The notes: generated by a model not told the origin, from the letters alone. A DNA stretch of 64,000 nt from an uncultured Acidimicrobiia bacterium (GCA_963786955.1 CAWBAT010000005.1:1164127-1228126); one strand, 5' to 3'. Shown: positions 32,547 to 62,826, counted from the stretch's first letter. Numbers and translations: made by a program.

Positions 32547-33796
32547 GTGAAAGAAACTCAAAATCTGTACGAGATTGCGAAAATGCGATTTGAAATGGCA
32601 GCCGATGCCATGAAACTCCCTTCTGATTTAAGAGAGGTGATGCTCCATTCCAAACGCCAACTCATTGTTTCCCTGCCGGTGCGGATGGACAATGGAACGA
32701 TCCGAGTGTTTGAAGGTTACCGGGTCCAACACAATATTGCACGCGGTCCCGCTAAAGGTGGCATTCGCTACCACCCCAGCGTGACCCTCGACCAGATCAA
32801 AGCTCTCGCTCAACTGATGACGTGGAAATGCGCGACGGTCAATATCCCTTATGGGGGTGGAAAAGGCGGGGTCATCTGCGACCCGAAAACCATGTCTCAG
32901 GGCGAGTTGGAGCGGCTGACCCGAAGATATGCCTCGGAGATTCTGCTCTTGATTGGCCCTGACAGGGATATCCCGGCGCCTGATATCAACACCGATTCTC
33001 AGACCATGGCGTGGATTATGGATACCTATTCCATGACCGTGGGCCATTCGATGCTGGGAGTCGTCACCGGCAAGCCGGTCGCTCTGGGCGGTTCTAAGGG
33101 TCGCGAAGAAGCTACCGCCAGAGGATGCTGGTATGCCATCCGAGAAGCTTGCAAAGTTAAGAACATTCATCTCAATAACGCAATCGTGGCAATCCAGGGG
33201 TTTGGCAGTGTGGGAACGACGACGGCGCGACTACTCCATGAAGATGGAGCTAAGATCATTGCCTTGAGCGATTCCCGAGGAGGTGTGCTCAACTTAAAGG
33301 GAATCGACATGAAAGCCGCTCTGGAACATAAGCGGAAAACAGGCCGGCTTGAGAGCCTAAAAGGCACAACTGCAATCTCCAACGCGGAATTGTTGGAGTT
33401 GAAGTGCGACATCCTTGTTCCAGCCGCAATGGAGAACCAGATCACCTCAGAAAACGCTTCTAAGGTGAAAGCTACGATCCTGGCGGAGGCTGCCAATGCG
33501 ACGACTACTCCTGCGGCGGATGAGGTCTTGATCAGGAACGGCACTTACCTGATTCCTGACATTCTGTGTAATTCAGGCGGCGTCATCGTGTCCTATTTTG
33601 AGTGGGTGCAAGACCTGCAGGGGCTTTTCTGGTCTGAAGGAGAAGTCAACAACCAGTTGGAAAAAATCATGATTCGGAGCTTCCAGGAAGTCCACGACAT
33701 TTCCCAGAAAAGAAGAAGGACATGCGGGTGGCGGCTTATGTCCTGGCCGTAGGCCGAGTGGCTGATGCGACAAACGCGCGAGGGCTCTTTCCCTAA
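32547..33796 (+). pseudogene. gdhA: glutamate dehydrogenase (Glu/Leu/Phe/Val dehydrogenase family), one frameshift near the 3' end as read
   Basis: GPAKGGIRYHPSVTLDQIKALAQLMTWKCATVNIPYGGGKGGV is present. ORF 32547..33752 ends in nonsense (RRRTCGWRLMSWP). The family-typical C-terminus MRVAAYVLAVGRVADATNARGLFP* is read from 33722 in another frame. One extra A in the A4 run at 33708-33711 would restore the frame. Confidence 0.85.
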
Positions 33797-33906
33797 GAAT
33801 TGACACAATCCGTTCGATCTCTGGGACCCGGCCCCGACTTTATTCCCGCGAAATGGAAATTGGTTTTGCAGAACCCGCCAGCAGAGGCGGTCTTAATGAT
33901 ACCGCC

Positions 33907-35196
33907 CTACCTTACTGGCGGAGCCTGATACACGACTTTACCGGCCATGATGGTGGCTGTCACTCTTCCCTTGAGTTTTGTCCCATGAAAAGGTGAATTC
34001 CGGCTTTTTGACCGTGTCTGATTCACATCGTATACCCATTCGTGATCCAGCCCAAAAACCGTCACGTCTGCTTCGGCCCCTACTTTGAGAGTGCCAAGCG
34101 ACTTATTGATAATCTTTGCTGGATTGGTGGAGAAGAGTTCTACCAACCGTTTTAAGCTAATTTTTCCTGTGTGATAGAGTTGGGTAAGGGCAAGACTGAG
34201 TGCTGTCTCCAAGCCAATAATCCCGAACGGCGCGCAATCAAATTCCAGCATTTTTTCGTTCGGATTATGGGGGGCGTGGTCGGTTGCAAGACAGTCCACG
34301 GTTCCATCGGCAATCCCCTCCACAAGTGCTTCGATATCCTTCTCAGTTCGCAAGGGAGGATTCATTTTTGTATTCGTGTCGTAACCGCAACAGGCGGCAT
34401 CAGCCAGCGTGAAGTGATGGGGAGTGACCTCGCAGGTGACATCAATTCCTTTTTGTTTGGCGGCACGTACTAGCTCGAGTGCACCTTGGGTAGAAAGGTG
34501 AGCAATGTGGATATGCGCGCCCGTCAATTCTGCAAGCAAAATGTCACGGCTCGCCATCGCATCTTCGGCCGTGCGACTGATTCCTTTTAGGCCCAAGACG
34601 GTCGAGTAGTAGCCCTCATTCATGGAACCCTTTGCGGAAAGGTGCAAATCTTCACAGTGCTCAATGACCGGGATTTTAAAGGGTAAAGAATATTCCATCG
34701 CACGACGCATCAATTGTCCGTTCATGACCGGCTTTCCGTCGTCGCTGATGCCGACGGCCCCGGCACTCACCATCTCCCCAATCTCGGCCAGTCGCTCACC
34801 GGCACTTCCCATGCTGATGGCGCCGATCGGAAAGACGCGGGTTACGGCCCTTCGTTGTGCTTCTTCACAAATGTATTTGGTCACGGTGGGACTATCGTTG
34901 ATGGGGTTGGTATTTGGCATGCAACAGATGGTCGTAAATCCTCCTGCGGCAGCTGTCCGGGATCCGCTCTCTATGGTTTCTTCGTCTTCCCGTCCGGGCT
35001 CTCGCAAGTGCACGTGGAGATCAATAAAGCCAGGTGAGACGATGAGTCCCGTCGCGTCAATGATCTGATCGGCGGAGGCTTTGAGGTTTTGTCCAACCTT
35101 GCTGATTCTTCCGTCATCAATGAACAAGTCACTGACAGCGTCTAATCCCGAGGCGGGGTCCACTATTCTTCCATTTTTGATCAGTAGCGAATTCAA
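33907..35196 (-). CDS. pyrC: dihydroorotase
   Basis: 429-aa ORF. GFIDLHVHLREPG and the remaining amidohydrolase metal-ligand blocks are present. It follows pyrB. Confidence 0.9.
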   Translation of the reverse strand: MNSLLIKNGRIVDPASGLDAVSDLFIDDGRISKVGQNLKASADQIIDATGLIVSPGFIDLHVHLREPGREDEETIESGSRTAAAGGFTTICCMPNTNPINDSPTVTKYICEEAQRRAVTRVFPIGAISMGSAGERLAEIGEMVSAGAVGISDDGKPVMNGQLMRRAMEYSLPFKIPVIEHCEDLHLSAKGSMNEGYYSTVLGLKGISRTAEDAMASRDILLAELTGAHIHIAHLSTQGALELVRAAKQKGIDVTCEVTPHHFTLADAACCGYDTNTKMNPPLRTEKDIEALVEGIADGTVDCLATDHAPHNPNEKMLEFDCAPFGIIGLETALSLALTQLYHTGKISLKRLVELFSTNPAKIINKSLGTLKVGAEADVTVFGLDHEWVYDVNQTRSKSRNSPFHGTKLKGRVTATIMAGKVVYQAPPVR

Positions 35197-35199
35197 AGC

Positions 35200-36186
35200 T
35201 TAAGAGTCCTCCTTTGTCTCCCCGGTTAAGAGGAACAAAACAGCCATTCTTACGGCGACGCCGCTAGTAACCTGGTTCATAATGACTGAATATTGCCCGT
35301 CGGCTACGTTTGAGTCAATTTCGACCCCCCGATTGATCGGGCCCGGGTGCATGATGATTGCGTCAGGCCTCGCCGCTTTCATGCGATTCGCACTTAAACC
35401 GTAATAACGGAAATACTCCCGAACAGAGGGAAAGAAAGCCTCCTGTTGCCGTTCTAATTGAATGCGCAGCATCATGACCACATCGGCATCCCGAAGGGCT
35501 TCATCCATATCGAGTGTCACTTTCAGACTCCCGAGGTTTTCAGTTTTCGCTCCAGAGAGGGATTCACGACCGATTTCATCCAGCATCCGTTCAAACTTAA
35601 GAGGGATCAGAGTCGGAGGCCCGCACACGGTAATGTGCGCACCCATTTTCCCTAACAAGAGGCAATTCGACCGGGCGACGCGACTATGGGTAATGTCTCC
35701 GATGATAGCCACCCGGAGATCTCGTAAGGATTTCTTATGATCGAGAATCGTGAGCGCATCCAGCAATGCCTGGGTGGGATGTTCATGGGAGCCATCCCCA
35801 GCATTCACAATCGAAGCACTGCAGACTTTGGCCAATTGATGGGGTGCCCCTGAAGAAGAGTGTCGGATCACAATGACGTCCGGTGCCATAGCCTGCAAGT
35901 TCTTGGCAGTATCGATCAGAGTTTCACCCTTCACCACACTGCTCGTCGAAACAGAGATATTGATGACATCAGCACTGAGTCGTTTTCCCGCAATTTCAAA
36001 GGATGTTCGAGTTCGGGTAGACGCCTCAAAGAAAAGATTGACGATGGTCTTTCCCCGCAAGGTGGGGACTTTCTTAATAGGCCGAGTCGAGATCTCCCGG
36101 AGAGACTGGGCTGTCTTGAGGATGAGCTCGATTTGCTCTGGAGAGACTCCCTGAATTCCAAGCAGATGTTTCAAGCCTAAAGCCAC
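35200..36186 (-). CDS. pyrB: aspartate carbamoyltransferase catalytic subunit
   Basis: [21 protein letters not shown] and HPGPINRG motifs. Confidence 0.92.
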
Positions 36187-36267
36187 ACAGGCACCTCGAT
36201 CTTGTTGCGACTTAAAGTGATTTGGAATGGCATGATTGAATGGCTCTGCAACGGACTGCGTTTAAGG

Positions 36268-37135: not shown

Positions 37136-40100
37136 ATGAAACCAGAGGATCTGCTTTTAGCGGCCGAACTGGATTCCGCAAAAGCTTCCCAGATTCTAAA
37201 GAAATACGGATTTAAAGATCCGGAATGGGGCAGACCGTAATCTGCAGTTGATGGCTGAGGACCTCTCAACCCGTCTCATTCTGGCCCGAATCATCGGAAT
37301 TTATTGGAAGCTGCCAAGAAATGTCCCGACCCTGACTCTGCCATCAATTACTTTGAAAGACTTTTGGCCAATGTAGCGCATTCGAGCAATTTCTTGGGAT
37401 TTCTGGGAGATACTCCTGAAGCGCTCGAGGCCCTGATCCTTCTGCTTGGAACCTCCCCGTTCAGCGCCGAGATTCTGATCCGAAACCCCGAATACTTCTA
37501 CTGGATCCTGGATGAGTTGGGGACTCCGTGGATCAAGCCGTCATCGGCTTATCTTCAAGAAGCGCTGCAGGCGAAGGAGCCCTTTGAAGATGGAGAGCAG
37601 CAGTTGCGGGCACTCGGCCGATCTCAAACGGCGGGAAATCCTACGAATCGGCGCCAGAGACATTTTGAGAGCTGCAAACGTACTGGGGACAATTACCGAG
37701 CTTTCAAATTTAGCCGATGCTGTTTTGCAATCTATTTACTCCATATGCTTTCAGAACCTGGCTGGGAAACATGGCATCCCTTGCTTTCTGGATGCGTCAG
37801 GTAAATTGAGAAGGGCCCGGTTTACAATTCTAGCAATGGGAAAACTAGGCGGGTGCGAACTCAACTACAGTTCAGACATTGATCTGATTTTTATCTACGA
37901 TGGGGAAAACGGGAATACGACATCCGCTGAAAGCCTGCTGGAATCCAATCAACCGGGAGATCCAGAACGGACGCCCGCTATTTCTACAATCCCCCGGCCT
38001 CCAATTCTGGAAGATCTAAAATCCATTTCAAACACCGAATTCTTTACCAAGCTTGCCCAAACCATTACGCACGAACTCTCGAGTATGACTGAGGAGGGAT
38101 ATTTCTACCGAGTGGATCTCCGACTCCGCCCCGAGGGGAGTGCCGGTCCGGTGGCGAGTTCATTCACGGCCTGCAAAAACTATTACTCCAGCTGGGGGGA
38201 AACTTTTGAGCGAATGGCGCTGATCAAAGCCCGACCGGCAGCAGGTTCCACGGAGCTTGGAGACGAGTTCTGCAAAGCCTTCAACTCTTTCGTTTACCGG
38301 AAGTTCTTGGATTTTGCCGCTTTAGAAGAGATCCAGGAGATTAAGACTCGGATTGAATCAAAACTGACTGCCAGGAAAAAAAATGTCCGGCACGTTAAAC
38401 TCGGAGCGGGCGGGATCCGTGAAATTGAATTCTTCGTCCAGGCGCTCCAGTTAATCTATGGAGGTCGAAATCCGCAAATACAGGACCGCAGCACGGTCAA
38501 GACGCTCAGCCTTCTGCAGGGGAACCAATTTATTTCTACCGACGAGAGTGCAGGACTGCTGGATGCCTACTGTTTCCTGCGCGACTTGGAGCACAAGCTA
38601 CAGATGGTTAATGAGCTCCAGGCCCATGAACTTCCCGAAGACGAGGAGGAACTCTACAAATGTGCCCGGCGAATGGGCTTTCTGGAAAAGTCTCGTGCCG
38701 AGACGATCAAAACATTTTCTGAAAAAATATGAATCACACACAACCTATGTTCGGGATCGCTTTCAAAAGCTTATTTCTCTGAAGAGAGACGAGTGGTCCG
38801 GCGGCCAGATGCGAGAGGCCTCTCTGATTCTCAGCAAGAACCTCTCAAAACAGGAAGCCTTGGAAATCCTTGACAGACCGGGGTTCGAAGACCTCCAGAC
38901 AGCTTATAATCAAATCTGCTTGCTCCGCGATGCTCCTTCGTTTGCCCACTCGCCCTCAAAGATGCGCAATTTGCTGGCGAACCTCATGCCATCCCTTCTT
39001 GAGACCCTCAGGGTTAGTCCTGATCCGGATACAGGCTTGAACTTCTTCGAGCAGTTTGCCAGTGCATTAGGAGCCCGCGATTCTCTATACACTCTCCTGA
39101 ACGAATCCCCCAATGCTCTTCACAGTCTCATTCGAGTTCTCTCCAGCAGCCAGTTTCTCGCGGATTTTCTTTGCCGAAACCCCGAATTCCTGGATGCCAT
39201 TATCAAACTAGAATATTTAGAAGAGGCAAAACAACTTGAAGAATACAAATGGCAGATCAGAGAGATCCTTTCGGAGGAAAACAGCTTTGAGAATCGTGTT
39301 CAGGCCCTCAGAAAGCTTACACGAGGAAGAACTATTCCGCATTCAGGTAAGGGATGTCTTGGATCAATGTGATCGTCCATTGGTCGGTAAACAATTGGCT
39401 GCCTTGGCGGAAGCATGTTTAGAAGGGGCATTTTTGCTTGCCTGCCAAAGACTGGAAGAGCATGAAATGAGTTCCTTTCAGTCATGGGCGCAAGATCACT
39501 TTGTCATCCTTGCCCTTGGAAAATTGGGGGGAAATGATCTGAGCTACCAATCGGATTTGGATCTTGTCTATTTCTATTCGGTTGATTCAGAGACGAATTC
39601 GATCGGACGCAACGCCGCCTCACTCGTTTGGTAGAACAAATCGACCAGATACTAAGCGTCTCGACAGGAAAGGGCGCGATCTACAAGATCGACACCCGCC
39701 TCCGTCCTGAAGGAAAGAAAGGTGGATTAGTCACCCCTTACTGAAATACCAGCAATATCTCGAACATCGAGCCCAGCCTTGGGAACGGTTGGCGATGGTT
39801 CGCCACCGCTTATGATGGGGAGCTCAAGAAATCGTGCCATGCATTCTGAAATGGTGAGGGGCTTTGTCTTTCAGTCGGAATTTCCGTCCATCCGTGGTCA
39901 AGGAGATTGCCCATATCCGTCACCGAATGGAAATAGAATTGGCGAAAGAGGCTGAAGAAAATAGTTTTCATATCAAGGCAGGGGCTGGCGGGTTAGTGGA
40001 TATTGAGTTTGCCGTACAAATGATGCAGTTGAAACATGGGTGCCGGCATCCTGCTTTACAGATTTCCAATACTCTTCATCGCCCTGACGGAAATCAGAGA

Positions 40101-40375
40101 ATTGGGGCTTATTTCGCTTTCTGATTTCCAGGTTCTCTATCTCGGGTACGAGTTCCTCCGTTTCCTGGAAAATCGATTGAGGATTGCCTCTCCTTTTGGC
40201 TCAGGAACCTTTCATCGTCAATTACAAAGTCTAGGGAAAACGTCACGCCTACTTGGGATATTCAAGCACGAATGATCCTAGGGCCGCCAAGGATTTCGAA
40301 GGTGCGTACCTCGACATCACGAGTTCCGTAAGAAATGTGTACCAGAGAATCATGAATCAGTTGGCCTTATCATGA
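37136..40375 (+). pseudogene. glnE: glutamine synthetase adenylyltransferase/adenylyl-removing enzyme, at least 11 frame changes as read
   Basis: Fragments 37022-37240, 37304-37804, 37512-38732, 38458-39372, 39236-39634, 39864-40124, 40036-40275 and unlisted pieces join colinearly. Two nucleotidyltransferase cores are present: MGKLGGCELNYSSDIDLIFIY and LGKLGGNDLSYQSDLDLVYFY. The frame order I traced is 2,0,2,0,1,2,1,0,2,0,1,2. Confidence 0.8.
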
Positions 40376-41114
40376 GCTTTCTTCGATCCCGATAACACTC
40401 ATCATTCTCCCAGTTTTTCCTTTTTCTGCACGGTGGGAAAAAAAGAGTTCGGTCCGGCAAGCTCGTACAAGCCTCACTACTGAAAATATTGTGTGGCAGG
40501 ATCCCAGATTCGAGTAATTGGTGTTTGCCAGGCAGCTACAAATCGAGGGACATCGTTGTCGGCGCAGTCAAGTCTTTATGGTTGAAGCTGCGGAAAAAAG
40601 AATCCCTCCAGCGAATTCTTTCGCGAATGCCTGGACCATTTCCTCTCCGACTTCGTAGCAGCAGGGGCCAATTCCAGGTCCGATTACCGCCAGGCAATCG
40701 GCAGGGACAGTCCAGAAATTCTTTTGCATCTGTTCAGTCGGCTTTCATGGTGATTCTTTTGAGAAGGCCTCGCCAGCCAGCATGAATGGCAGCAATCGAC
40801 TTTTCGACGAGGATCGACCGCTAAGACGGGCAGGCAGTCGGCGGTTTGGATGGCCAGCAGAATTCCAGTCTGGGCGGTAATCATGGCGTCTGCTTCTGGA
40901 GCCGTTGCCAAATGGTTTCTTGTTCCTAATCGCAAAGATTCTGTCGGAGTGAGTTTGGCGCAAGGTGACCAGAGGGATTTCCCTGCCGGAGACTGCACCG
41001 GGCCAATCTCTTTCGATTTTCCAGCACGATTTCTGCCGGTTGATAATCATTCAATCCAAGGTTAAGGTCTCTTTTGGGTTCAGGGTCAAAACGCAAGCTA
41101 AAACCGTGCAGCAT
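40370..41114 (-). pseudogene. pgeF: PgeF/YfiH-family (laccase-domain) protein, several frameshifts as read
   Basis: The pieces carry LRQTHSDRI, ADAMITAQTGILLAIQTADCLPVL, IHAGWRG (alternate frame), GPCCYEVGEE and FFSHRAEKGKTGRMMSVIG. Its stop overlaps the glnE stop convergently. Confidence 0.7.
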
Positions 41115-41207
41115 CCACTTGAAGGAAGCTAGCGGTTGGTGATATAAGAAATTTCGCGACCGTTGAGATTAGAAACTGGTTATCCGTCATAAAGAGAGAG
41201 AATTGAA

Positions 41208-41585
41208 ATGATTGTGGGCATGGGAGTCGATATTGTCGAAATTGAAAAACTCAGACTCGCCATGATGAGACGAGGTGAGCGACTGCGCAATCGGGCGTTT
41301 ACTCCGGGCGAGATTCAATATTGTGAACAACGCGCTCACCAGTATCAGCATTATGCCGCCCGATTTGCAGCTAAGGAAGCTGTATTCAAGGCGATCGGCT
41401 CGGGATGGAGAAATGGAGTGACCTGGCTCGACGTGGAGGTTTTCAACGAGCTCAGCGGGAAGCCCATACTCCGACTAAATGGAAAAACCCTTGAATTTGC
41501 GAACGCATTAGGGGCCCGGAATTATTGGTTAAGTTTGACTCATACCGACCACTATGCGGTAGCCCAGGTGGTACTCGAATCTTAA
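41208..41585 (+). CDS. acpS: holo-[acyl-carrier-protein] synthase
   Basis: 125-aa ORF with GMGVDIVEIEKL and FAAKEAVFKA motifs. Intact. Confidence 0.9.
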   Translation: MIVGMGVDIVEIEKLRLAMMRRGERLRNRAFTPGEIQYCEQRAHQYQHYAARFAAKEAVFKAIGSGWRNGVTWLDVEVFNELSGKPILRLNGKTLEFANALGARNYWLSLTHTDHYAVAQVVLES

Positions 41586-41623
41586 GGGGCGACGATTCCA
41601 CTCGCCCTCTCCATGCAAATTTT

Positions 41624-43009
41624 TCAGAATGTCGACGTTTCGAAGACTAAGAAACGACCCGTGCCAGATAGCCCTTCCGAGGTGATTCCAGTCACAATGA
41701 CTTCCCGCAATTGATTCGATTGAATACTCGGGGGCATCGATCGAAATTTTCAAGTAGTTGCTACTCAGTGCGTCCGCGGATCTCTCCGGCTCATGCCAAC
41801 GCAAGGTCATGACTCCGATTCTCTTGCCGATGAACTTTTCCCTAAATTCCCGATTCTTACGGGCAGCCAATCTCCCTCAATTCATTACCTTGCGCTGACC
41901 GGTGACTTCACTTCGGCCCAGTCGGTCGCATCAAGGCGGCTGCTGTGCCGGGTCGTTGGGAATAGGGGAATACATGGAGATAAGTCATCGGCGCCAGGCT
42001 CAAGAGCGATTTTTGTTTCGATGAAGTCTTCTTCCGTCTCGGTAGGGAAACCCACCATGACATCGGCGCCGATGGCCGCATCTGGAACACGTTGTCGCAT
42101 TTTCTCGACTAGTCGGCGATAGAACTCCGCGGTATAGGGTCGACGCATGAGGCGCAGTATCCGGTCGGATCCGCTTTGTAATGGAACATGAAAATGCTTC
42201 GCCATCTTGGGCGACTGTGCGATAAGGTCAATGAGATCATCGGTATATTCCAAAGGTTCAATGGAACTTAGCCTGAGACGTCTCAATCGATCTTCTCGAA
42301 GAAGCCTTTAACCAACAGAGCAAGGTTTTCCTTTTCCCCAAGGTCTCTTCCGAATCCGCCCAGGTGGATTCCTGTTAAGGTGATTTCCTTATACCCCTGG
42401 TTTAAAAGTTTCCTGGTTTGGCGAAGGACTTCATCGATGGACAAGCTGCGGGAATTTCCTCGAACTGAAGGAATCACGCAAAAAGAACAACGATAACTGC
42501 ACCCATCCTGAACCTTCAAAACGGGGCGCGTTCTGTCTGCCCCTCCTGGATCTCCGATCGTCCGAAGCTCGCGGGACTCGAAGATGCTGCTGCAATAGAC
42601 TGTCGCCCCTGAAGCTCGAAAATGGTTTATTGTCTGGGGATCCCGCAGCATCGCTTAGTTGCCTCTCCCTTTGCGTCACAATCGAGACCAACTGATCTTT
42701 GTGCGAGTTCCCGACTACGCAAGACACCCCACTGATGGCAGCCACCTCGCCCGGCACACGCTGCGCATAACAGCCTGTGACAACCACACGGGCAGTAGGA
42801 TTTTCTCGATGAACTCGGCGAATCATGGTGCGGGCTTCAGCGTCAGCGGCGTGGGTTACCGTGCAGGTATTGATGACAACAATATCAGAGCGGTTCCACT
42901 CCTCGGATTTCTGAAAGCGATTATTCAAGAAAGCCTGTTCCAAAGCGGCGCCATCGGCTTGAGTCGCTCGGCACCCGAAATTAATAATTTTGAAAGTCTT
43001 TGACTGCAT
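41624..43009 (-). pseudogene. mtaB: MiaB/MtaB-family radical SAM tRNA methylthiotransferase, multiple frameshifts as read
   Basis: The N-terminal UPF0004 domain (FKIINFGCRATQADGAALE, VINTCTVT), the radical-SAM CSYRCSFC and the downstream HFHVPLQSGSDRILRLMRRPY are spread over ORFs 42431-43009, 42283-42651, 41885-42286, 41908-42090 and 41529-41870. The 3' end is approximate. Confidence 0.7.
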
Positions 43010-43013
43010 GGCC

Positions 43014-44072
43014 CTATTTTGTCCCTGGTCTGCTGAGAACCCCTACATCGGACAAGACCTTCTGAGCCATGAGATTTTTAATGGGGGTCTCGTTTCTAAC
43101 AACGTCAAGATAGGCATTTTTCAAGAGCGATTCTTTGCGATTGAAAATAATCTGACGAATGTCTGCCTGAACCTTGGGGTCGCTGAGTTCGCGTTGCCCT
43201 CCGGCTTCTTTTTCGATGAGTTTGACAAGATGGTATCCATATTTCGTCATTACGGGATCCGGAACGTTTCCCCTACTTTCAGGCTTTGGACCGCTTGACG
43301 AAATCTGGGATCGATGGTTTCCAACTGCTGAGCGCTCAAGAGCCGGAGGTCTCCTCCGGACTGGGCTGACGTGCTGTCTTCCGAATAGTCTCTAGCCAAG
43401 ATGGCGAAATCCATGCCGCTCTGGAGCTGTTTCAAGAGAGAGATCACTTTCTGCCGGGCGGCCTCGTCCGTCTTCGCGTCGTCGCCCTTACCGTTACTGA
43501 TTTGAGGTTCGGCGAAGGGAGTCACTAGGATATGTTGAACATGCCAGCTCTCTGGCAAGTTGTAGTTGCCTTTATTTCGAACAAAGTACTCATTAATTTC
43601 CGCTTCCGTGACCGAAATCTTCGAGGTGATTTCTTTGTTATAGAGCTTCTCAATCGTTGCACTCTTTCCTAATTTCTTTCTTGATGCTCGTCAACCGTAA
43701 CGCCCTGGTCTTTGAGAAATTGTTGAAACTTTTCTTCCGTAAAATCTTTCTTGAAATCATTGAAGCGGACATTAACCTCCTCATCACTGGCAGTAAGTTT
43801 GTCAATCGCAGCCCGTTGCATCAGCATTTCATCACTGATCAGTTGCGACAAGATGGTCAAACGTAGGGTCAAGATTTCCTCTGGTGAGAGGGGCTGAGCT
43901 AGACTGTTTGAGCCGATTTTGATAAATCTTTTCAACGTCGTTATCTTTGATCGTTGTCTGATTCACAACGGCGACGGTATCGGGTGAAATCTTGGGGCCC
44001 GACTGGCAGCCCATACAGATTACGCAAAGCCACCCAAACCATACCGAAAATCCATTGAAGTCTAATGTTCAC
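43014..44072 (-). pseudogene. SurA/PrsA-like peptidyl-prolyl isomerase (parvulin domain) lipoprotein, multiple frameshifts as read
   Basis: The GTG at 44072 lies 5 nt after AGGAGG. The signal/lipobox region, a SurA-like N-domain (fragments 43832-44014 and 43669-43935) and a parvulin domain (HILV...MDFAILARDYSEDSTSAQSGGDL...GYHLVK; fragments 43250-43558 and 43014-43250) are in different frames. Confidence 0.65.
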
Positions 44073-44369
44073 GCCTGCCTCCTGTGCCTTTATGATGGCC
44101 ACTTATACTACCACCGCCCCATGTAGGGTACAACAGATTGAATGGGATGGAGTTCCCCAGCGTGGGATCATAAAAGGATCTTGAAACGGATCTCTTTTTG
44201 ACTTCTTAAAGCCCTAATTAGTGAAACCGAGAACTAAGTACTGCTCTTCATAAAGACGGTGACGGTAACGCCGGGGCGGTGACCGGGCCTACAACTTTGT
44301 AGGTCGCGTGCCCCCCCCCCGACACAGCGCCTATCCTGAGATACGTCACCCTAATTACAAATAGCAATA

Positions 44370-45122
44370 CTAAGGGGCAGATGGCTTCCGACCATAGTTG
44401 ATCGCGATGATTCCTCCTCCAAAAACAGATAGCCCGTATCCTCAAATCCGGCTTTGTCCATGAGTATTTGGACGCCGTGCTGCGCAGGATAAAGCTTCAG
44501 CGATTCCGAGATATAGCGGTAGACGTCAGGATCCCCGTGCATGACCCAACCCAATAGGGAGCCCATAACCGTAAGATAACCTAAATACGCACGGCAGTAA
44601 AAAGGATTGACAGGTTTCGCAAAATCCAAGGAGAGAAATCTTCCGCCCGGTTTGAGCATTCTGAAGACTTCTGACAACAAACAAGCGATATCGGGAACAT
44701 TGCGAACACCATAGCCAACGGTAATCCGGTCAAAGGTGTTGGCGTGAAACTCAAGCCGGGTGATATCACCGACTTCAAATTCAATGCCATTGATTCCCAA
44801 TTGTTGTTTTTTTCGGCTAGCAATCTCAATCATACCGGGAGTGATGTCTACACCCAGGACCCGTCCTGTTGAGACCATTTTCGCCAGCATGAAAGTGATA
44901 TCGCCCGTCCCGCAGGCCAAGTCCAGAATAAGTGATGCGGTTGAACATCAGTCCATCGAACCAGCTTCTTTTTTCCAACGTCGGTCTTGCCCATAGGAAA
45001 GCAGAGCGGTCACAAGGTCGTAGCGGGGGGCGATCTTGGAAAACATCTGGTTGACATACAGCTGTTTTTTTTCCTTTCGAGTTGATGAATTCCTTCATAT
45101 TCAGTCGGCTTGGATTAGCCAT
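44370..45122 (-). pseudogene. ubiE: ubiquinone/menaquinone biosynthesis C-methyltransferase UbiE/MenG family, at least 3 frameshifts as read
   Basis: [26 protein letters not shown] (alternate frame), LDLACGTGDITFML, and FDRITVGYGVRNVPD. The family-typical C-terminus GGGIIAINYGRKPSAP* is only readable after a shift. Confidence 0.7.
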
Positions 45123-45245
45123 TGAGTCACATCTTTCTCGATCGGGTAATGATCGAATTGTGCCTGCACGGCGTGGTAGTATTGGTGAAACTCCCGAGGG
45201 CAGCCGTTTGGTCAGATACCCTGACCTCATTTTTTCTCAGCTTTT

Positions 45246-48149: not shown

Positions 48150-48784
48150 AAGAGCGTGGAAAGAGAGTCCTTTTCCAGATATTATTCGCCTATCTTCCAT
48201 CTTTACTCCTGGCCTACATTCTTGTTCTCTATGTCCTGATTCGACGTAGTGCGGCGCTTGATGAATCTCAGCCAGCCGACATCATTTTCGTCTTAGGGGC
48301 TGCCCAATATAACGGGAGGCCTTCCCCGGTATTTAAGTCCCGATTAGATCATGCAGCAGCTCTCTTTAAAGAGAAATTTGCCGGTAAGATCATGACTACG
48401 GGAGGATATGGTTTTGACCCGAGGTACTCTGAGGCGGGGGTGGGCAAGCTGTATCTGATGAAGCAGAGCATCCCGGAGGATTGCATCTACACTGAGCCCA
48501 GCGGTCTGACAACCGGTGAGAGTATTGAAAGGGCCATCGAATTTCTCAAACAGCATAATTTTACCCGGGTTATTGCTGTCAGTGATGGCTTTCATCTGTT
48601 CCGGATTAGAAGAATCTTTCGAGATCATGAAATCACGACCTTTGGTTCGCCGGCTCAACATAGTGTCATTGAATCCAATTTTCGCTCCCGCACGCTGGCT
48701 TCTTTACGTGAGGTATTCATCTTCACAGCCTACATGGCGCGACACCATCTCCATATATCTTTTCCATTCTCCGAGATGTCCTGA
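48146..48784 (+). CDS. DUF218 (YdcF/ElyC/SanA-like) membrane-anchored protein
   Basis: 212-aa intact ORF with an N-terminal TM helix. DIIFVLGAAQYNGRPSPVFKSRLDHAAALF...IMTTGG is the DUF218 pattern. Confidence 0.7.
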   Translation: MKERGKRVLFQILFAYLPSLLLAYILVLYVLIRRSAALDESQPADIIFVLGAAQYNGRPSPVFKSRLDHAAALFKEKFAGKIMTTGGYGFDPRYSEAGVGKLYLMKQSIPEDCIYTEPSGLTTGESIERAIEFLKQHNFTRVIAVSDGFHLFRIRRIFRDHEITTFGSPAQHSVIESNFRSRTLASLREVFIFTAYMARHHLHISFPFSEMS

Positions 48785-48785: not shown

Positions 48786-50318
48786 TCACTGATTCCTCTT
48801 AATTTTCAAGGTCTGGACAAAGTCAAAATTTCCAGCCGGAGACAACTCGATTTCCGAAAGGCGACGGTTGTACACGCAAACGGTGTCCATATACCAGAGG
48901 CTGATGTAGGGCAGATCATCAGCAAGAATCTTTTGAATTCTGGAATAAGCCGTACGTCTTTTCTCCAGGTTGGACTCTTGGCGGGCCTCATCAATCAGCA
49001 GGTCCACTTCAGGATTCTCGTATCGACCACGATTATACCCTTTAGGGGGAACTTCGCGGGAATGGAACGCTCTTTCAAAGAGGTCGGGGTCATTATTTCC
49101 TCCAATCCATCGCAGTGAGTAAATTTGAAAATTGCCTCTCACAATGTCTGCATAAAAAGTGCCGAATTCGTAGGAACGAAGGTCCACCGCAATGCCAACC
49201 TCCTTCAAGGCTTGTTGAATAATTGCAGCCACCTGTCGGGAAGACTCCTCTGTAGAGGTCCTGAACGTCAATCTAAAACGTGGCAGAGGCCCCTTGCCAT
49301 CGGGATCTTTCCAGCCAGCCATGTCGAGCAGATTACGGGCCTTTTCCGGATCATAGGAATAGCGCTCCAACTCGGGCTCATAAGCCCAGTGATTCGGAGG
49401 AAGCAAACTCGAGGCTGGGATAACCAGACCGCGCCAATAGTAGCGGATAATGTCCTCCCGTGGAATTGCATAGGCAATTGCTTTTCGTACTTTCTTATCC
49501 CGAAGAACGAGATCTTTGAGATTTAATCCGATGTACTGGTAATTGGTTCCTGGAACAGCTCGCCACTCGAAGATGGGGTTCGCGCTAAGAGCCATCACGA
49601 AATCAGGGGTCAACACGTTTTGAGCAATATCAATGGATCCCTTTCGTAATTCCAAAGCCCGGGTTGTGGAGTCCGGAATGACCATAAACCGGATGCGGCC
49701 TGCGGCGGGGGAGTCCTCCGAAATAGTCGAGATTTGCTTCGAGAAGAAGTTCTTCTTCGTGCGAGTAAGAGACAAAACGATAGGGGCCCGAGCCTACCGG
49801 GTTGCGTTGAAAGTCTTTGCCCGACCCATAGGGTACGATCCCAATCCCTCCGTTTGTCAAGTTCCAGAGAAATCCGGCAAAAGGTTCCTTCAACCGGAAA
49901 ACAATGGTGTGCTCATCCGGTGTTTCTATCGACTGGATAAGCTGGAAGGTGGAAGATTTCGGGGAAACGAGCGAGCCATTCAGGAGAGATTCAAAGGTAT
50001 ATTTCACATCCCTCGCCGTCAGTGGACCTTCCGTCATGAAACTTCACTCCAGACCGGAGGTAAAAGCAGTAGGTCAGTGGATCGAGGGATTCCCAGCGGG
50101 TCGCAAGGTCTGGTAGGATTTCAAATCTTCTTCCCCTACGGACCAGAGAACTAAAAATCAGTTGTTGAATTCGTTCCGATTCCGCACTTAATCCAATGCG
50201 AGGATCCAGACTGGTAGGTCCGGCTTCCAGCGCGATCGTAATGGCTGGGTCCATGGTGCGGGGATGACCCGCAGCCCTGATGAACACCAGCGAGTATCAA
50301 ACCTAATACGAGCCACAT
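48786..50318 (-). pseudogene. ABC transporter substrate-binding protein, family 5 (peptide/nickel type), multiple frameshifts as read
   Basis: Fragments 50151-50363, 49991-50287, 49630-50037 and 48786-49775 join colinearly (LDPRIG...IQQLIFSSL, VKFHDGR, YRFVSY, RWIGGNNDPD). N-terminal signal MWLVLGLILAG. Confidence 0.7.
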
Positions 50319-50503
50319 AGTTTTCCGGGAGCAAAAAATTTTGACTTGTAAGGATTTGAGCATGGTCCGTCAGGAGGACAAACAATTGAGATCCGTCAAT
50401 GGGTGACAAAGTATGCATTGGCCTCTTTGAATCTGCCATTAAGAACCCAGGGCCGGGAAGAGCGAACACTTCGAGGCCATTAATAAACAAAGTCAGCGCT
50501 TTG

Positions 50504-51702
50504 CTACGAGGCCGGATACGTTTGAAATTCTTTCCGATAAATGATCTTCCCCAAGACCGTCATATGGCGTGCGCCCGTGGCTGATGGTACATTCCCGGGA
50601 TGAAAATGCAGCGTCTCATTAGCGAGGATGGCAAAACCAATAGCCTCTTTAGCTATAGACGGGATTCCCAATTCATCCGATGCCAAAACATCCAGCTGGG
50701 ATAAGACTTTCTTGATCCTCTGCATCAGGTAGGAATTTCTGGAACCTCCGCCCGATACAATCAGCTGGCGAATTGAGGGTTTTCCGAGCGATAAAAGGAT
50801 CGATGGCCTTCGCAATAGTCTGTACGGTGAGCTCCGTTGCCGTGCATATCAAGTCCTCTAAACAGAAAGAATTTCCTAATCGAAGCAGTTCTTCGAGGAA
50901 AGCCATTCCAAATTGCTCTCGACCTGCCGTCTTCGGAGGGGGAAGAGAGAAGTAAGGTTGCCGAACTAGTTTCTTGAGAAGCGCCGGGATGATTTTTCCA
51001 CTTCGGGCGATTTCTCCGTCTCGATCGAATCCCATTTCATTGTGGGTCATCCGTCGGACCAACCCATCAATCACCATGTTACCGGGCCCAGTATCAAAAG
51101 CCACGATTTCTGCCAGCGTGAGTGGCTGCTGGAAGAACTGTCACATTGGCGATACCCCCAATATTTAAGAGGATACGACCGTGCCGTGGATGTCGAAAAA
51201 GCAAATAGTCCACATAGGGGTATGAGGGGAGCACCTTTGCCACCCGCGGCCATATCCCGCGGTCTAAAATCACAGATCGTCGTTATCCCGGTTTGTTCCG
51301 CGATGATTGAAGCTTCCCCAATCTGTAGAGTCGATGCCAAAGTCCGACCGCAAAAGGCATCCGGCTCCGATTGATGGAAGATCGTTTGCCCATGGGAACC
51401 GACCAGGTCAATCTGGTTGATCTTAACGCGGGCCTCCTCACATAACTTAAGAATCGCCTCTGCATAGAGTGTTCCGATCAAAAAGTTCATCTGGCTGATC
51501 ACCTTGGGACGGAACAGGCGATCCTGAAGCGATCTGGAGAAGTTCTCGGTGGACCTCGAGAATCAAAGGGGATGGAGATAAAATGCCGCAACACAATTCG
51601 CGTCTGCCGACCTGCCCCAAAAATCTCCACCAGAGCAGCATCGACACCGTCTAGAGAGGTTCCCGACATTAATCCGATAACAAGTTTGGAGTTCTTGGGC
51701 AA
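50504..51702 (-). pseudogene. anmK: anhydro-N-acetylmuramic acid kinase, multiple frameshifts as read
   Basis: The TTG start at 51702 abuts the mutS stop. GLMSGTSLDGVDAALVEI, FDTGPGNMVID and the C-terminal GGGSRNSYLMQRI lie in different frames (fragments 51499-51702, 51071-51502, 50673-51104 and 50504-50815). Confidence 0.75.
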
Positions 51703-54327
51703 TTATTCTTCTACTTTCGATTTAAATTCATTCAATTTTTGCAAAGCCTGTAGAGGAGTAAGCTCGTCAGGATTTATTTGGCGGAGTTCTTCAAGCACTT
51801 CATGATCACTCAGGACAAACAAATTCAGTTGATTCTCCAAGGAGGTTTGCTTTCGTTTGAAACTTCGCGTCAGTTGATCGCTGATTTCGTGTTCCCCCTC
51901 TTCATGCTTTTTCAGAATGTCGCGAGCTCTTTCCAAGACGCTGGAGGGGAGGCCAGCAAGCCTGGCGACTTCAATCCCGTAACTCTTATCTGCTGCTCCC
52001 GGCTCCACCTTTCGAAGAAAAATAATTTCTTGACCCACTTCCTTGACGGAGACATGGTAGTTCTTCACTCCAGGCAAAAGATCTGCCAGCTCGGTCAGTT
52101 CATGGTAATGAGTCGCGAACAAGACTTTGGAACGCAAGTGACAATGGAGGAATTCGATGACTGCCCAGGCTATCGCCAATCCATCAAATGTGGCTGTTCC
52201 GCGTCCAATTTCATCCAAAATGACAAGGCTTCGGGAAGAAGCGGCATTGAGAATCACTGCCGTTTCGGTCATCTCAACCATAAAGGTGGAGCGGCCGCGT
52301 GCGAGATTATCGGTTGCGCCGATTCGAGTGAAAATACGATCAATCAGCGGCAATCGCGCATAGTCTGCCGGGACAAAAGAACCCATTTGCGCCATGATGG
52401 AAAAAAGAGCCGTCTGCCGGAGGTACGTCGATTTTCCTCCCATGTTTGGTCCGGTAATGATGAGGATTTGATCGGTGGAATCATTTAGATAGAGATCATT
52501 GGGAATGAACTTTCCAAGCGAAAGTTGATCGGTGAGCTGTTCGATGACCGGGTGGCGACCTCCTTTCACGATAAACTCGCCATCGGGTGCAATTTCTGGT
52601 CTGACATAAGAATGGGAATGCGCCACTTCAGTGAGAGAAATCAAGCAGTCTAATTGTGCCAGGGCCGATGCGCATCGCCTGATCCGTCACTGCTTCCAGC
52701 GCAACTTTGGAACGAAGTTCTGTAAAGAGCTCATATTCAATTTCTACCATCCGGTCTTCTGCCCCAAGAACTTTACGTTCATATTCCTTTAGTTCAGAAG
52801 TTGTAAACCGCTCAGCGCCGACCAGGGTTTGTTTCCTTTCGTAATGTGAAGGAACCAGGCCCAGATGGGACCTGGACACCTCGAGGTAATATCCAAAAAT
52901 GTTATTAAACCTTACCTTTAGATTACTAATCCCGGAAAGAGAACGTTCACGGGACTCCAATTCTGCGATAAATTGCTTCCCTGAGGTACTGATCTGACGA
53001 AGCTCATCGAGCTCACTATGGTAGCCCTCTCGAATCAATCCGCCCTCAGTGAGCAGGATAGGAGGGTTATCTTTTAGAGCTTTTCCGATGAGTTCGGCAA
53101 CGTCCTCCAATGGATCTGCCAAGTGGTTCAGTTCTTGGAGGCGCCGCGTGGCGAATGATCCCAAGCGGGTTTTGAGGAAAGGGATTTGTTCCAGGGATTG
53201 TCGGAGAGCGACAAGGTCCCGCCCGTTGGCTGTAGACAGCGTTACCTTGGAAAGCAATCGCTCGACATCGTAGACCTTCTGAAGAAGTTTCTTAATTTCT
53301 TCGCGCTCGATCAATTTCCCTTTTAGTTCAGTAATGACATCTAGCCGCAATTGGATCTCGTTCAAATCAATTTCAGGGCGCAGCAACCAGCTTCTGAGCA
53401 ATCGTGCGCCCATGCCCGTCGAAGTTCGATCCAGACAAGAAATCAAAGTCGCATGTCTGGTACCGTCGAAGAGAGATTCCACTAACTCAAGGTTACGGAC
53501 CGTCGAGGAATCCAGTACCAGTGCTCCGCTCAGATCGTAGTATTTCAAATGGTCGATATGGCTTAGCCGGGCTTTCTGGGTGTCCTTCACATAATGTAAA
53601 ACTGCTCCAGCCGCGGCCACAGCGAGCTTACGATCCTGGCAACCGAATCCTTCAAGGCTCATCACTCCAAAATGCTCGGTCAGCGTGCGTTCGGCGTAGT
53701 CTGTCGAAAAGATCCAATCTTCAATGATTGTTTGTGACGGGATAAACTGGACAATTTGGTGAAGCCTTTCGTGCGGCGGGAGAGAGGCATGAATCAGTTC
53801 TTTTGGTCTAAGGCGTTCTAGCTCGGTCTGAAACTGTTCAAAGCGTTTTCTCCCTTGAACTCCGTGGTCTGAAAGTCTCCCGTCGAAATATCGAGGGAAG
53901 CCAGGCCCACGCCGCTCCGATCTACCCACAGGGCACTCAAGAAATTGTTCTCCTGTGGTTCCAACAGGTTTCCGTCGGCAACCGTACCCGGAGTCAATAC
54001 TCGGCTGACTTCCCGTCGAACCAGTTTTTGTGAAGGTTTGGGTCGTTCAACTTGGTCGCAGACGGCAATTTTGTATCCTTTCCTGACGAGTTTTGCCATA
54101 TAACTGTCTGCGGCGTGATACGGGACTCCACACATGGGTACGGACAGCCCTTTTTCCTTGTTTCGGGAAGTGAGGGTGATCTCCAGTTCACGGGAGGCGA
54201 CTACAGCGTCCTCAAAGAAGAGTTCATAGAAATCCCCCAGACGAAAGAAGACGAGCGCATGCGGATATTCTTTCTTCACCCGATGGTACTGCGTCATCAT
54301 AGGGGTTGAGGGTTCCATGGAATCCAT
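51703..54327 (-). pseudogene. mutS: DNA mismatch repair protein MutS, two frame changes as read
   Basis: Three colinear fragments: 53818-54456 ([34 protein letters not shown]), 52628-53929, and 51703-52644 (GPNMGGKSTYLRQ Walker A, DEIGRGTATFDG). The junctions are near 53.85 kb and 52.65 kb. Confidence 0.85.
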
Positions 54328-54529
54328 TCTCCCTTGGCAGGAGGGGTCATGCGGAGAAACGGTTGGTGCCAAAAATCCTGGAAGTATATAATTCCGGTGT
54401 TTACGAGTGTCAACGCGACCCGTTCCCGGTTGGCGGGCCTCGTGTACACAATACATTTAAACTCCGCATAGGGAGAAAAGAAAAAAGATCTTCTCGTGTT
54501 TTCGAATTCTCTGATGTGACCTCGGTCAA

Positions 54530-55214
54530 ATGAATATTCTCTGTATTGATACGTCCTCCAGTGCCGGAAGCGTCGTTCTCGTTTGTGGAGAAAGAGTTCT
54601 TGGAGAACTTCATGTGGATTCACTACAGACTCATTCTGCCCGCTTATTATCGGGGATCGACGCAGTTCTCAAGAGCGCCAATCAGACGATATCCAACGTG
54701 GATGGGTTTGCCGTGATCTCTGGGCCGGGGTCATTTACGGGGATTCGCATCGGGCTGACCACAGTGAAGGGATTGGCGGATTCAATGCGGAAACCCGCCA
54801 TCCCGATAACGTCATTTGAGGCATGGGTCGAGAAACATCACGATCTTCAAGGCATCCTGGTTCCGCTCATTCCGGCACGTCGTGGCGAGGTCTACGCATG
54901 TGTTTACGAACGTCGGGGATCAGAATTAAAGATGCTTTCGGACGGGATCGGAGGAGAAGTGGCAAGTGTCATTGCACAGATTTCGGAGGCAGAAGTCAGT
55001 TTCATTGGTTTTGGTGCCCACCAATATCGAGAAATCATCGAGGGAAGAGGAAGAGGGCAATGGAAGATTTTTGCGACGGATCTCTTTCTAGGACAACCTA
55101 TGGCTCGGATTGCATATCAGCGCGCCACCAAGAAAAGAATTTTGCTCTGCGCAAGACCTGGCTGCTTTCTACTTGCGACAGTCTGACGCGGAGATTCACT
55201 GGAAAGAAAGGTAA
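54530..55214 (+). pseudogene. tsaB: tRNA t6A biosynthesis protein TsaB, one 3'-proximal frameshift as read
   Basis: ILCIDTSSSAGSVVL and ISGPGSFTGIRIG. The family-typical tail LAAFYLRQSDAEIHWKER* is read in another frame after the A4/T4 runs at 55133-55143. Its TAA overlaps the rimI ATG. Confidence 0.8.
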
Positions 55215-61742: not shown

Positions 61743-62287
61743 TCTTCCTCAAAATGGAAATGGTCGTCAAATTTCGGAACTTCTGGGCATAATCCAGTCC
61801 ATACCCAACGACAAACTCATCAGGAATCTCAAAGCCCACATAGGTGGCTGCTACATCTTTGGTTCTTCGGGACCGCTTACTTAAAAGAGTGCAGATGTTC
61901 AGGGAATTCGGACCGCGTGTCCAGAGATAACGAGACAAATAAATCAAGTGTCAGGCCGGTGTCCAGAATGTCCTCCACGATCAAGACTTCTCTCCCTTGA
62001 ATCGTAGAATCCAGATCTTTGACGATTCTGACCTCGCCGGAGGAGCGCTGACTTTCCTTATAACTAGAAACCGCCATGAAATCCAAAGTAGTGTTTTTGG
62101 GCAAATATCGGATCAAGTCCGCCAGAAAAATACAAGCACCTTTAAGGATGCAGATCAGATGCAGCTGCTTCCCCGTATAGTCGTCCGTTATCCGGATTCC
62201 TAATTCTTTGACTTTGGCCTGGATTTGTTGCGCGTCGATTAGAACATCTAGTTGAGTTGACACCTCAAGGGTATCAGGCGTCATCAT
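61714..62287 (-). pseudogene. hpt: hypoxanthine phosphoribosyltransferase, one frameshift as read
   Basis: 61877-62287 carries ICILKGACIFLADL and the PRPP motif [14 protein letters not shown]. 61714-61947 carries [10 protein letters not shown]...[25 protein letters not shown]. The two are in different frames. Confidence 0.8.
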
Positions 62288-62373
62288 TAAACCCCAGATA
62301 TATTTGATGCCCGAATTATTCTACTGTATCCTATCCGTAATCGTGGTGCAAGCCGGACGCGCAGGAAGGCAGC

Positions 62374-62403
62374 TTGACAATGATCAGGCGCTCTTCTTAT
62401 CAT
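62374..62403 (+). promoter_or_regulatory. sigma70-like promoter candidate
   Basis: TTGACA (62374-62379), an 18-nt spacer, then TATCAT (62398-62403). It lies 53 nt upstream of the ATG at 62456. Confidence 0.4.
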
Positions 62404-62455
62404 GCCATGGCGATTGAGTATTAAGAATAATTCCGCAGCGAAGGAGCAATCGGTA

Positions 62456-62826
62456 ATGATCAAGAAAGTGAGCTTAATAATCGGTTGTCTGTTCGTGGCG
62501 GTTTCCATGGCCGGAACATTGCCCAAGGGAAGAAAGTGACTTTTGCCGGTTACCTGCTGGATCAAATGTGTGGTGCAGAGGTGAAGGACACGGCCAAGGC
62601 TGCAGAACACTCAAAGGAATGCGCCCTCATGGATCACTGCGTTGCAGCGGGCTATGGGATCTTCGCCGAAGGGAAGTTTATCAAGTTCGATGCCCAGGGT
62701 AACAAGAAAGCCAAGGCATTCCTTGAGAGTAGTAAAAAGGAAAAAGGCATTCTGGTTATCTTGGAAGGAAATCTTAATGGTGACGTCTTGACGGTCTCGG
62801 CGATAAAGGAAAGGGGTGTTAAGTAG
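62456..62826 (+). pseudogene. small secreted hypothetical protein, signal peptide and mature part in different frames as read
   Basis: The ATG at 62456 lies 9 nt after AAGGAG and encodes MIKKVSLIIGCLFVAVSMAG, then stops. ORF 62485-62826, in another frame, encodes the mature-looking part (KVTFAGYLLDQMCG...HSKECALMDHCVAAGYGIF...). Confidence 0.5.

Follow-up and report, generated by a model that had tools for sequence, protein, structure and literature searches.

In reductive genome evolution, as in Mycobacterium leprae and recent symbionts, gene decay is genome-wide and deletion-biased, is accompanied by nonsense mutations and larger deletions, and produces pseudogenes that are under relaxed selection and are inherited along the phylogeny. 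Many conserved genes are likewise frameshifted in the window analyzed here (the entire 64,000-nt stretch of DNA, whose gene fragments belong to a contig of 1,759,374 bp in NCBI and ENA), but none of the other hallmarks of such decay is present in it.

False pseudogenes are described from Nanopore and PacBio MAGs and isolates, in which single-base indels fragment conserved genes, low-abundance populations are worse affected, and frameshift-aware alignment corrects the defect (PMC8103633; Kastor, PMC12007338). In long-read MAGs these indel-driven cases are more frequent at low coverage (PMC8103633). The window is similar with respect to the type of damage, and sister long-read contigs of the same lineage (L001, L085, and L092) also contain split genes. 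In contrast to homopolymer length miscalls, however, its dense zone of breaks is homopolymer-independent, insertion-rich, and without detectable substitution errors.

Another parallel is the collapsed assembly of diploid Trypanosoma brucei, in which nearby allelic variants caused wrong read alignments and hence INDEL errors (PMC8445201). There, as is proposed for the window, apparent frameshifts arise from allelic variants that shift read alignments, the errors lie at variant positions and not in homopolymers, and ORFs are full length after haplotype separation, a respect in which the window is counted as alike (PMC8445201). The window differs from the T. brucei case in that its “haplotypes” would be co-occurring bacterial strains in a metagenome instead of diploid alleles, in that the effect is limited to a block of ~14 kb with a thinner tail, and in that its tandem alleles were measured against proxy strains, not phased reads. 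We consider it probable, at roughly 80%, that the frameshifts are consensus errors from at least two related strains merged in a long-read metagenome assembly, and not mutations.

Frame breaks along the window

Frame breaks were counted by frameshift-aware alignment to intact orthologues. Their density changes in three steps, from 0 to 3.9 and then to 0.49 breaks/kb: ORFs are contiguous and free of breaks over 1–33.6 kb, a single break follows at 33.71 kb, the dense zone (37,226–51,558) holds 57 single-base breaks, and ~0.5 breaks/kb are found beyond it to 62.5 kb. Nearly all indels are of 1 nt, two are of 2 nt, and large deletions are absent. A preliminary description of the sequence had reported uninterrupted long ORFs over 1–33.7 kb, a single break in gdhA at 33.71 kb, conserved genes split between 37.1 and 51.7 kb, thinner damage past 51.7 kb, and ±1 shifts with no large deletions, all of which agree with the aligned counts. 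The frame-corrected genes align over their full length to intact orthologues, with in-frame stops essentially absent.

Upstream of the dense zone, gdhA (32547..33795, plus strand) has one −1 break at ~33,710 and is intact in the short-read contig L004. Within the zone, glnE (37136..40330, plus strand) carries 11 single-base breaks (37226, 37294, 37622, 38709, 39313, 39591, 39737, 39811, 39890, 40077, and 40252); after frame correction it encodes 1,055 aa with 63% identity to a full-length GlnE (P0241, 1,061 aa) and no in-frame stops. On the minus strand, pgeF (YfiH family, 40290..41190) has eight breaks plus a compensating pair at 40528/40539 and is intact in L002, L003, and L093, while mtaB (41640..43009) has six breaks and ubiE (44351..45110) four, the L002 and L093 copies of both being intact (451 and 250 aa, respectively). 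The gene for a SurA-like PPIase (43014..44130, minus strand) has five breaks, and rarA (45230..46602, minus strand) has six, its frame-corrected protein being 88% identical to the RarA of L002. Two breaks each divide a TrmH-family methyltransferase gene (46637..47443, minus strand) and tsaC (47511..48149, plus strand; 47759 and 47891), the latter intact (212 aa) in L086, L092, and L093. The gene for an ABC-type substrate-binding protein (SBP_bac_5; 48786..50363, minus strand) has six breaks and a corrected product 94.7% identical to that of an intact L001 ORF, and anmK (50504..51702, minus strand) has seven, five internal and two near its 3′ end, with an intact L086 copy of 389 aa.

Further downstream, mutS (51703..54330, minus strand) is broken at 52688 and 53839, the L086 copy being intact (871 aa), and tsaB (54530..55150, plus strand) is broken once, at 55132, as judged from contig alignment and three-frame reading rather than from frameshift-aware orthologue alignment. 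Single breaks also occur in a bacilliredoxin-like gene (PF06491; 58110..58540, plus strand) at ~58458, in hpt (61750..62293, minus strand) at ~61890, and in a small ORF of 123 aa (62456..62826, plus strand), where a −1 break at 62518 is lacking in the intact L092 copy.

Two genes of the dense zone, acpS (41208..41585) and a DUF218/ydcF-like gene (48146..48784), both on the plus strand, are intact, as had been noticed before, and chance could account for their escape (P = 0.23 and 0.08, respectively). The intervals between breaks in the dense zone fit an exponential distribution (KS p = 0.45), with a variance-to-mean ratio of 1.03 over the 57 breaks. Patchy damage in which acpS was spared by selection was ruled out, the breaks behaving as a homogeneous Poisson process.

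Single-base breaks spread in this manner over a block of ~14.4 kb, about one read length, with a sharp start and end, could also be produced by ordinary noise of long reads where coverage or polishing was poor (e.g. in a stretch built from one or a few reads), homopolymer-length miscalls included. The split genes of L001, L085, and L092 and the effect of low coverage on frameshift errors in long-read MAGs (PMC8103633) are consistent with such noise; its recurrence at the same columns in another contig, and the sites at which the indels lie, are not, as discussed below.

Related contigs and the substitution pattern

The short-read MEGAHIT contigs of close strains were L004, L086, L087–L091, and L093 (97.6%, 97%, 97–98%, and 93.9% identical to the window, respectively). 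Examination of orthologous loci in close relatives, which the preliminary description had proposed as a check, revealed that every affected gene is intact in the short-read contigs of close strains (94–98% identical) and that the indels are window-specific, being missing from these assemblies. The indels at 54405 and 55132 are missing from the two other contigs reaching them, and that at 58458 is missing from all others reaching it (four short-read contigs and L092). When JGI metagenome contigs were scanned with the L002 RarA, only relatives of ≤67% amino-acid identity were recovered, none of them a close strain; some of these served as references for MutS and AnmK. An exact 32-mer from acpS had no match in GTDB representative genomes, nor did exact-protein look-ups find a match for pyrB, pyrR, the ydcF-like gene, a 222-aa rpiB-like ORF, or an accD-like ORF.

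Approximately eight internal indel sites are common to the window and the long-read contig L001, and are absent from L093 and L086. Between 44 and 49 kb the window is 1–2% from L093 and 5–10% from L001, and L086, too, is much closer to it there than L001. Because the sharing contradicts this local phylogeny, the common sites would represent the same artefact recurring, and their interpretation as inherited real mutations was rejected. Recurrence at the same columns is also not expected of ordinary read noise.

Window-specific substitutions number 24, 15, and 90 at codon positions 1, 2, and 3, with a positions 1+2 to position 3 ratio of 0.22, compared with 0.24 in the intact relative L086; the corresponding counts versus L001 and L002 are 84, 66, and 243. 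Overall, the ratio is 0.22–0.31 in the window and 0.24–0.27 in intact relatives, and relaxed selection is not seen. The third-position bias of the window-specific substitutions is normal, which means that selection acted on the broken genes as they evolved and that they are not in decay. The 17–37 indels are accompanied by approximately no extra random substitutions, such that indels equal or exceed excess substitutions in number; long-read noise would be expected to leave substitution errors as well, and none is detectable.

These results bear on whether the window might contain a genuine block of decaying genes, with real frameshift mutations perhaps helped by MutS loss. The deposited sequence does contain the indels, mutS is among the broken genes, and the related contig L001 has breaks in this region too, some of them at common sites. 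However, this interpretation is close to refuted, and we regard it as highly improbable: the essential tsaC, tsaB, mtaB, ubiE, and glnE would all be dead in one 15-kb block while the adjoining 33 kb is perfect and strains 1–3% away are intact, and the sites common to L001 run against the phylogeny. Selection is not relaxed, indels are at least as numerous as neutral substitutions, nonsense mutations and deletions of >2 nt are absent, insertions predominate over deletions, and the sites are not homopolymeric; nor is there a reason for mutation to yield the tandem SNP alleles described below. The frameshifts are thus interpreted as an artefact, and not as pseudogenes, because the genes are intact in independent short-read contigs, the substitutions are of the type left by selection, and the breaks are Poisson-distributed irrespective of genes. 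It is strongly supported that the roughly 65 breaks in housekeeping genes are assembly error and that these genes are to be read as intact.

Each frame segment still encodes conserved protein under purifying selection, as would be the case if real frameshifts were bypassed in expression through programmed ribosomal frameshifting, transcriptional slippage, or RNA editing. Such bypass is scarcely credible given that the sites have no slippery or other motif, are not conserved in strains 1–6% away, occupy only a single block of a 1.76-Mb contig, and lie at SNPs of which both alleles are carried. We assign an equally minimal chance to the indels being truly in the strain's DNA with recoding or RNA-level correction, or to the block being a very recently silenced copy; if true, this would be the sole reading to give a biological basis to coding segments that alternate in frame and bear the mark of selection.

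Indels are independent of homopolymers and lie at inter-strain SNPs

In the dense zone insertions outnumber deletions by ~3:1 (42 versus 15; p = 5e-4). Fourteen of 23 dense-zone insertions make a run of length 1, compared with 57% in a random-insertion null, and 7 of 11 deletions remove an isolated base (run length 1); runs of ≥3 account for three of the 23 insertions and one of the 11 deletions (null 17–20%). Neither k-mers nor homopolymer runs were found to be enriched at indel sites. Methylation or a sequence motif as the cause was ruled out by the lack of an enriched k-mer. A few breaks do lie in or beside A-runs (33710, 47891, and 53839), as ordinary read noise would predict, but such runs are not enriched among the break sites.

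The preliminary description had located the junctions in homopolymers, which the proportion of dense-zone insertions in runs of ≥3 contradicts; among the sites it named, the sole exception is the A4 at 33708–33711, where the break at 33,710 falls within a purine tract that varies in length between strains. The C7 run at 58,464–58,470, which had been regarded as overcalled, is unchanged in the four short-read assemblies whose alignments span it and also in a long-read assembly, the bacilliredoxin-like gene is intact in these C7-bearing assemblies wherever complete, and the window's extra base is at ~58,458, outside the run. Similarly, alignment with L001 puts the gap at 37,296 and not in the T3 at 37300–37302, which had been considered undercalled, and the supposed A4/T4 junction at 55133–55143 is instead a G inserted inside an A-run at 55,132.

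Superimposition of the indels on differences between L093 and L001 identified a mean of 1.09 variants within ±2 nt of each indel, compared with 0.40 ± 0.10 in a control for which random indels were simulated and then re-aligned identically, i.e. an excess of 2.7 times over random. Both L093/L001 SNP alleles are present in tandem at 14 of 33 insertions (42%), compared with 4.2% in the simulation (p = 2e-11), and tandem alleles involving L086/L092 occur at four further sites (51119, 51559, 52688, and 55132). Deletions also lie at or adjoin variant sites (6/11 and 3/3). In the short-read control L093, tandem alleles were observed at 0 of 4. The tandem-allele form accounts for only ~42–45% of insertions as measured against proxy strains; the remaining insertions may derive from unsampled haplotypes or ordinary read noise.

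Neither the adjacency to SNPs nor the frequency of tandem alleles is expected of ordinary long-read noise, which we consider an unlikely source of the breaks as a whole. A consensus of collapsed strains is favored over faulty homopolymer polishing because the dense-zone indels are independent of homopolymers, are biased to insertions, adjoin inter-strain SNPs, and often contain tandem alleles. The earlier interpretation therefore stands with respect to an artefact whose fragments represent single genes, but not with respect to homopolymer over- and under-calls as its cause in the dense zone.

A probable consensus merged from co-occurring strains

In the proposed mechanism, the sequence from ~37.2 to 51.6 kb, and more thinly to 62.5 kb, would be a consensus to which two or more co-occurring strains, ~2–10% apart, contributed reads. 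At strain differences, read alignments would put the two alleles into separate columns, and the consensus would either keep both bases in succession (+1) or lose both (−1), each such event shifting the frame by one base. The affected part of the window would then be a mosaic of real alleles and artefactual single-base indels, the organism's genes being intact. The read-level process, the sequencing platform, the coverage, and the strain mixture are what we infer from the assembled sequence.

The biological significance of the window is very small, in that it contains ordinary housekeeping genes, those of a Terriglobia-like acidobacterium, to be treated as intact, and the frameshifts are not a biological feature. 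Its consequences for annotation are larger: annotation would turn ~15–25 kb of the 1.76-Mb contig into ~60 gene fragments or pseudogenes, and any estimate of metabolism, pseudogene content, or completeness would be skewed as a result. Because the errors are at strain SNPs, homopolymer-aware polishing would not mend the defect. No reads are needed to look for the tandem-allele signature: it is enough to ask whether an inserted base and its neighbor are the two alleles of related contigs, and such a check could flag collapsed-strain segments in further long-read MAGs.

The abrupt onset near 37 kb could reflect the collapse of a strain bubble or a locally altered strain coverage ratio. The left 36 kb are also 2–5% from other strains, yet are clean, and therefore a local cause is needed, e.g. 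assembly-graph structure or the ratio of strain coverages. A strain switch (i.e. a chimeric contig) behind the onset is unsupported as stated, its boundaries not matching those of the dense zone: divergence from L001 jumps at ~36.2 kb, the relationship to L093 switches at ~44–46 kb, and the distance of the window from the short-read strain remains ~2% to either side.

Extent and density of the frame breaks

The breaks across housekeeping genes that the preliminary description reported beyond a clean left side are real in the sequence, as shown by mechanical ORF lists of the window and by frameshift-aware alignment. From 1 to 33.6 kb the ORFs are long and contiguous, among them an alternative-complex-III and cytochrome-oxidase cluster; beyond ~37 kb they are short overlapping pieces in differing frames. 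GC content is flat (~0.49–0.52) along the window, so the broken block is not compositionally foreign. At 5,957–8,085 there is a small cluster of mobile-element flavour, encoding a DUF4258 protein and a second protein that combines T5orf172/MUG113 and HNH-repeat domains, adjoined by two overlapping ORFs without Pfam matches.

Breaks were counted with a purpose-written frameshift-aware protein-to-DNA aligner against intact orthologues. There are 11 in glnE (reference, the full-length 1,061-aa GlnE P0241); 8 in pgeF, 6 in mtaB, 5 in the SurA-like PPIase gene, 4 in ubiE, 6 in rarA, and 2 in trmH (reference, proteins of L002, a short-read contig of a relative); and 6 in the SBP gene (reference, an intact ORF of L001, a long-read-style contig of a relative). 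Frameshift-aware alignment gave 5–7 breaks in anmK and 2 in mutS; tsaC has 2, and gdhA (~33,710), tsaB, the bacilliredoxin-like gene, hpt, and a 123-aa ORF at 62.5 kb have one each. Nearly all breaks are single-nucleotide, and the frame-corrected proteins align end to end with their orthologues, essentially without in-frame stops.

Break density rises from 0 per 33.6 kb to 57 in 37,226–51,558 (3.9 per kb), hereafter the dense zone, then falls to ~0.5 per kb in the tail; even at the tail's low rate, a break-free initial 33.6 kb would have P = 8e-8. Breaks in the dense zone follow a homogeneous Poisson process (exponential intervals, KS p = 0.45; variance-to-mean ratio 1.03) that is blind to gene identity, and chance suffices for acpS and the DUF218 gene being unbroken (P = 0.23 and 0.08, respectively).

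Intact relatives and the rejection of gene decay

Gene fragments of the window (P0121, P0242) belong to a contig of 1,759,374 bp in NCBI and ENA. Protein matches place the window in the Acidobacteriota, class Terriglobia, and exact-protein look-ups yielded relatives in two groups, long-read-style versus short-read contigs. Genes are split in the long-read-style contigs L001 (ERZ25039488 contig_73790; 92% identity to the window), L092 (ERZ25039478 contig_15748; 94%), and the more distant L085 (a 79-kb contig of JGI 3300044699); split mutS, anmK, glnE, and others recur in public long contigs of the same lineage, and in this low-abundance acidobacterial group false pseudogenes seem to be common. 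Genes are intact in the short-read contigs L004 (97.6% identity; window 27.0–35.1 kb), L086 (97%; 47.1–59.0 kb), L087–L091 (97–98%; 54.2–59.5 kb), L093 (93.9%; 39.15–51.1 kb), and L002 and L003 (83–84%). Jointly these cover 27.0–35.1 kb and 39–59.5 kb, the latter taking in the greater part of the dense zone (39–51.6 kb), and comparison of orthologous loci found every gene intact in the short-read contigs covering it: MutS is 871 aa, AnmK 389 aa, SBP 561–568 aa, TsaC 212 aa, TrmH 268 aa, RarA 454 aa, UbiE 250 aa, and MtaB 451 aa.

Three-way alignments, which assign differences to lineages, gave 33 insertions and 13 deletions specific to the window relative to L093 and L001, all of 1 nt, and 14 insertions and 3 deletions relative to L086 and L092. 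The indels at 54405 and 55132 are not in the two other contigs reaching them, and that at 58458 is in none of the contigs reaching the site (four short-read contigs and L092). Window-specific substitutions remain biased by codon position, as in functional genes: against L086/L092 they number 24/15/90 at positions 1/2/3, a position-1+2 to position-3 ratio of 0.22 (L086 0.24 and L092 0.19 in the same comparison), and against L001/L002 they number 84/66/243 (0.31 versus 0.26–0.27). In acpS the counts are 0/0/12. Extra random substitutions accompanying the indels are roughly zero.

Natural decay is expected to leave substitutions far in excess of indels, a bias towards deletion, larger deletions, and nonsense codons. 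The window's broken genes show no such marks. Together with the retained codon-position bias and the gene-blind Poisson distribution of breaks, the indel spectrum leads us to reject real pseudogenisation; the feature is an assembly artefact, not a biological element. The preliminary description was therefore right, given the intact relatives and the lack of decay marks, to call the breaks artefactual and to advise annotating the fragments as single genes.

Indels at inter-strain variants

The mechanism it proposed, over- and under-calling of homopolymers, does not hold for the dense zone. Insertions creating a run of length 1 make up 14/23 (null 57%), only 3/23 fall in runs of three or more, and 7/11 deletions are out of length-1 runs; insertions outnumber deletions 42:15 (p = 5e-4), and no k-mer is enriched at the indel sites. 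Set against the relatives, only one of its four homopolymer junctions stands, that at 33,710, which lies in a purine tract of variable length between strains. The C7 run at 58,464–58,470 is unchanged in L092 and in the four short-read contigs aligning through it, the extra base being at ~58,458, and the bacilliredoxin-like gene is intact wherever complete in contigs carrying the same run. The break ascribed to a T3 run near 37,300 is placed by alignment at 37,296 and so misses that run, and the one assigned to an A-run or T-run (A4/T4) at 55133–55143 is a G within an A-run at 55,132.

The indels instead adjoin strain differences. Columns variable between L093 and L001 average 1.09 within ±2 nt of a window indel (0.41 expected for random columns); 46 random indels introduced into the corrected window and re-aligned identically gave 0.40 ± 0.10. 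In 14/33 insertions, the extra base together with the adjacent one gives exactly the two alleles of one L093/L001 SNP, side by side (simulation 4.2%, p = 2e-11). At 40796, for example, L093 reads caa-Cga, L001 caa-Tga, and the window caaTCga; at 49561 the window's TC combines alleles T and C. When L086 and L092 serve as the proxy pair, this tandem-allele form also occurs at 51119, 51559, 52688 (mutS), and 55132 (tsaB), and 3/3 deletions lie at or adjoin variant sites. It is found in 5/21 cases within L001 itself and in 0/4 in the short-read control L093.

On these observations, the artefact is most likely a consensus merged from reads of at least two related strains. In collapsed haplotypes, nearby allelic variants displace read alignments and INDEL errors follow (PMC8445201); the window's indels, adjoining strain variants, behave alike. 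Long-read MAGs are prone to indel-driven false pseudogenes (PMC8103633; Kastor, PMC12007338). A consensus over two haplotypes (haplotypes, depth, and platform all being inferred) would choose real alleles at strain-variant positions, and hence show no substitution ‘errors’; it would also explain the insertion bias. Plain low-coverage noise may contribute to the insertions without the tandem-allele form (roughly 55%).

Approximately eight internal single-base indels of the window share their alignment column with an indel of L001, with the same base in most (chance expectation ~0.1). The common sites are 39591, 39808, 40079, 40740, 40902, 45635, and 47759 (internal), and 40384 and 45252 (near-terminal). 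Inheritance is ruled out because at 44–49 kb the window is 1–2% from L093, which is without them, and 5–10% from L001. We read the common indels as the same strain-pair artefact recurring, as a mixed-strain consensus would explain.

Onset of the breaks and relatedness along the window

The left 36 kb is as polymorphic as the broken part, yet clean; the presumed collapse starts near 37 kb. At ~36,200 (pyrB/pyrR boundary) window/L001 mismatch density jumps from ~3.5% to ~9%, and L001's own frameshifts start at 36,531, in pyrR. The window's nearest relative changes at ~44–46 kb. Neither of these shifts coincides exactly with a limit of the dense zone. At 39–44 kb the three sequences (window, L093, L001) lie roughly equally far from one another, each with 2–8% specific differences; from ~44–46 kb, within 39–51 kb, the window is within 1–2% of L093, and L001 is 5–10% away. 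This mosaic relatedness, which a mixed-strain consensus would explain, may reflect either strain recombination or a mosaic collapsed consensus. A patch at 50,000–51,000, running from the 5′ end of the SBP gene across the intergenic region to the 3′ end of anmK, is ~9% divergent from L086 in surroundings of 1.5–2%.

Larger differences also occur. A 135-bp intergenic segment between the PPIase gene and ubiE (44,239–44,373) is not in L001 or L002, and the C10/C11 run near 44,310 within this spacer differs in length from L093. Most of hpt (315 bp, 61,878–62,193) is missing from L092, either a strain-level deletion or an L092 assembly error. At ~55,930, L086 and L087 have an extra ~358 bp encoding a 135-aa RidA (Ribonuc_L-PSP), which the window and L092 are without; this is probably a real strain presence/absence difference.
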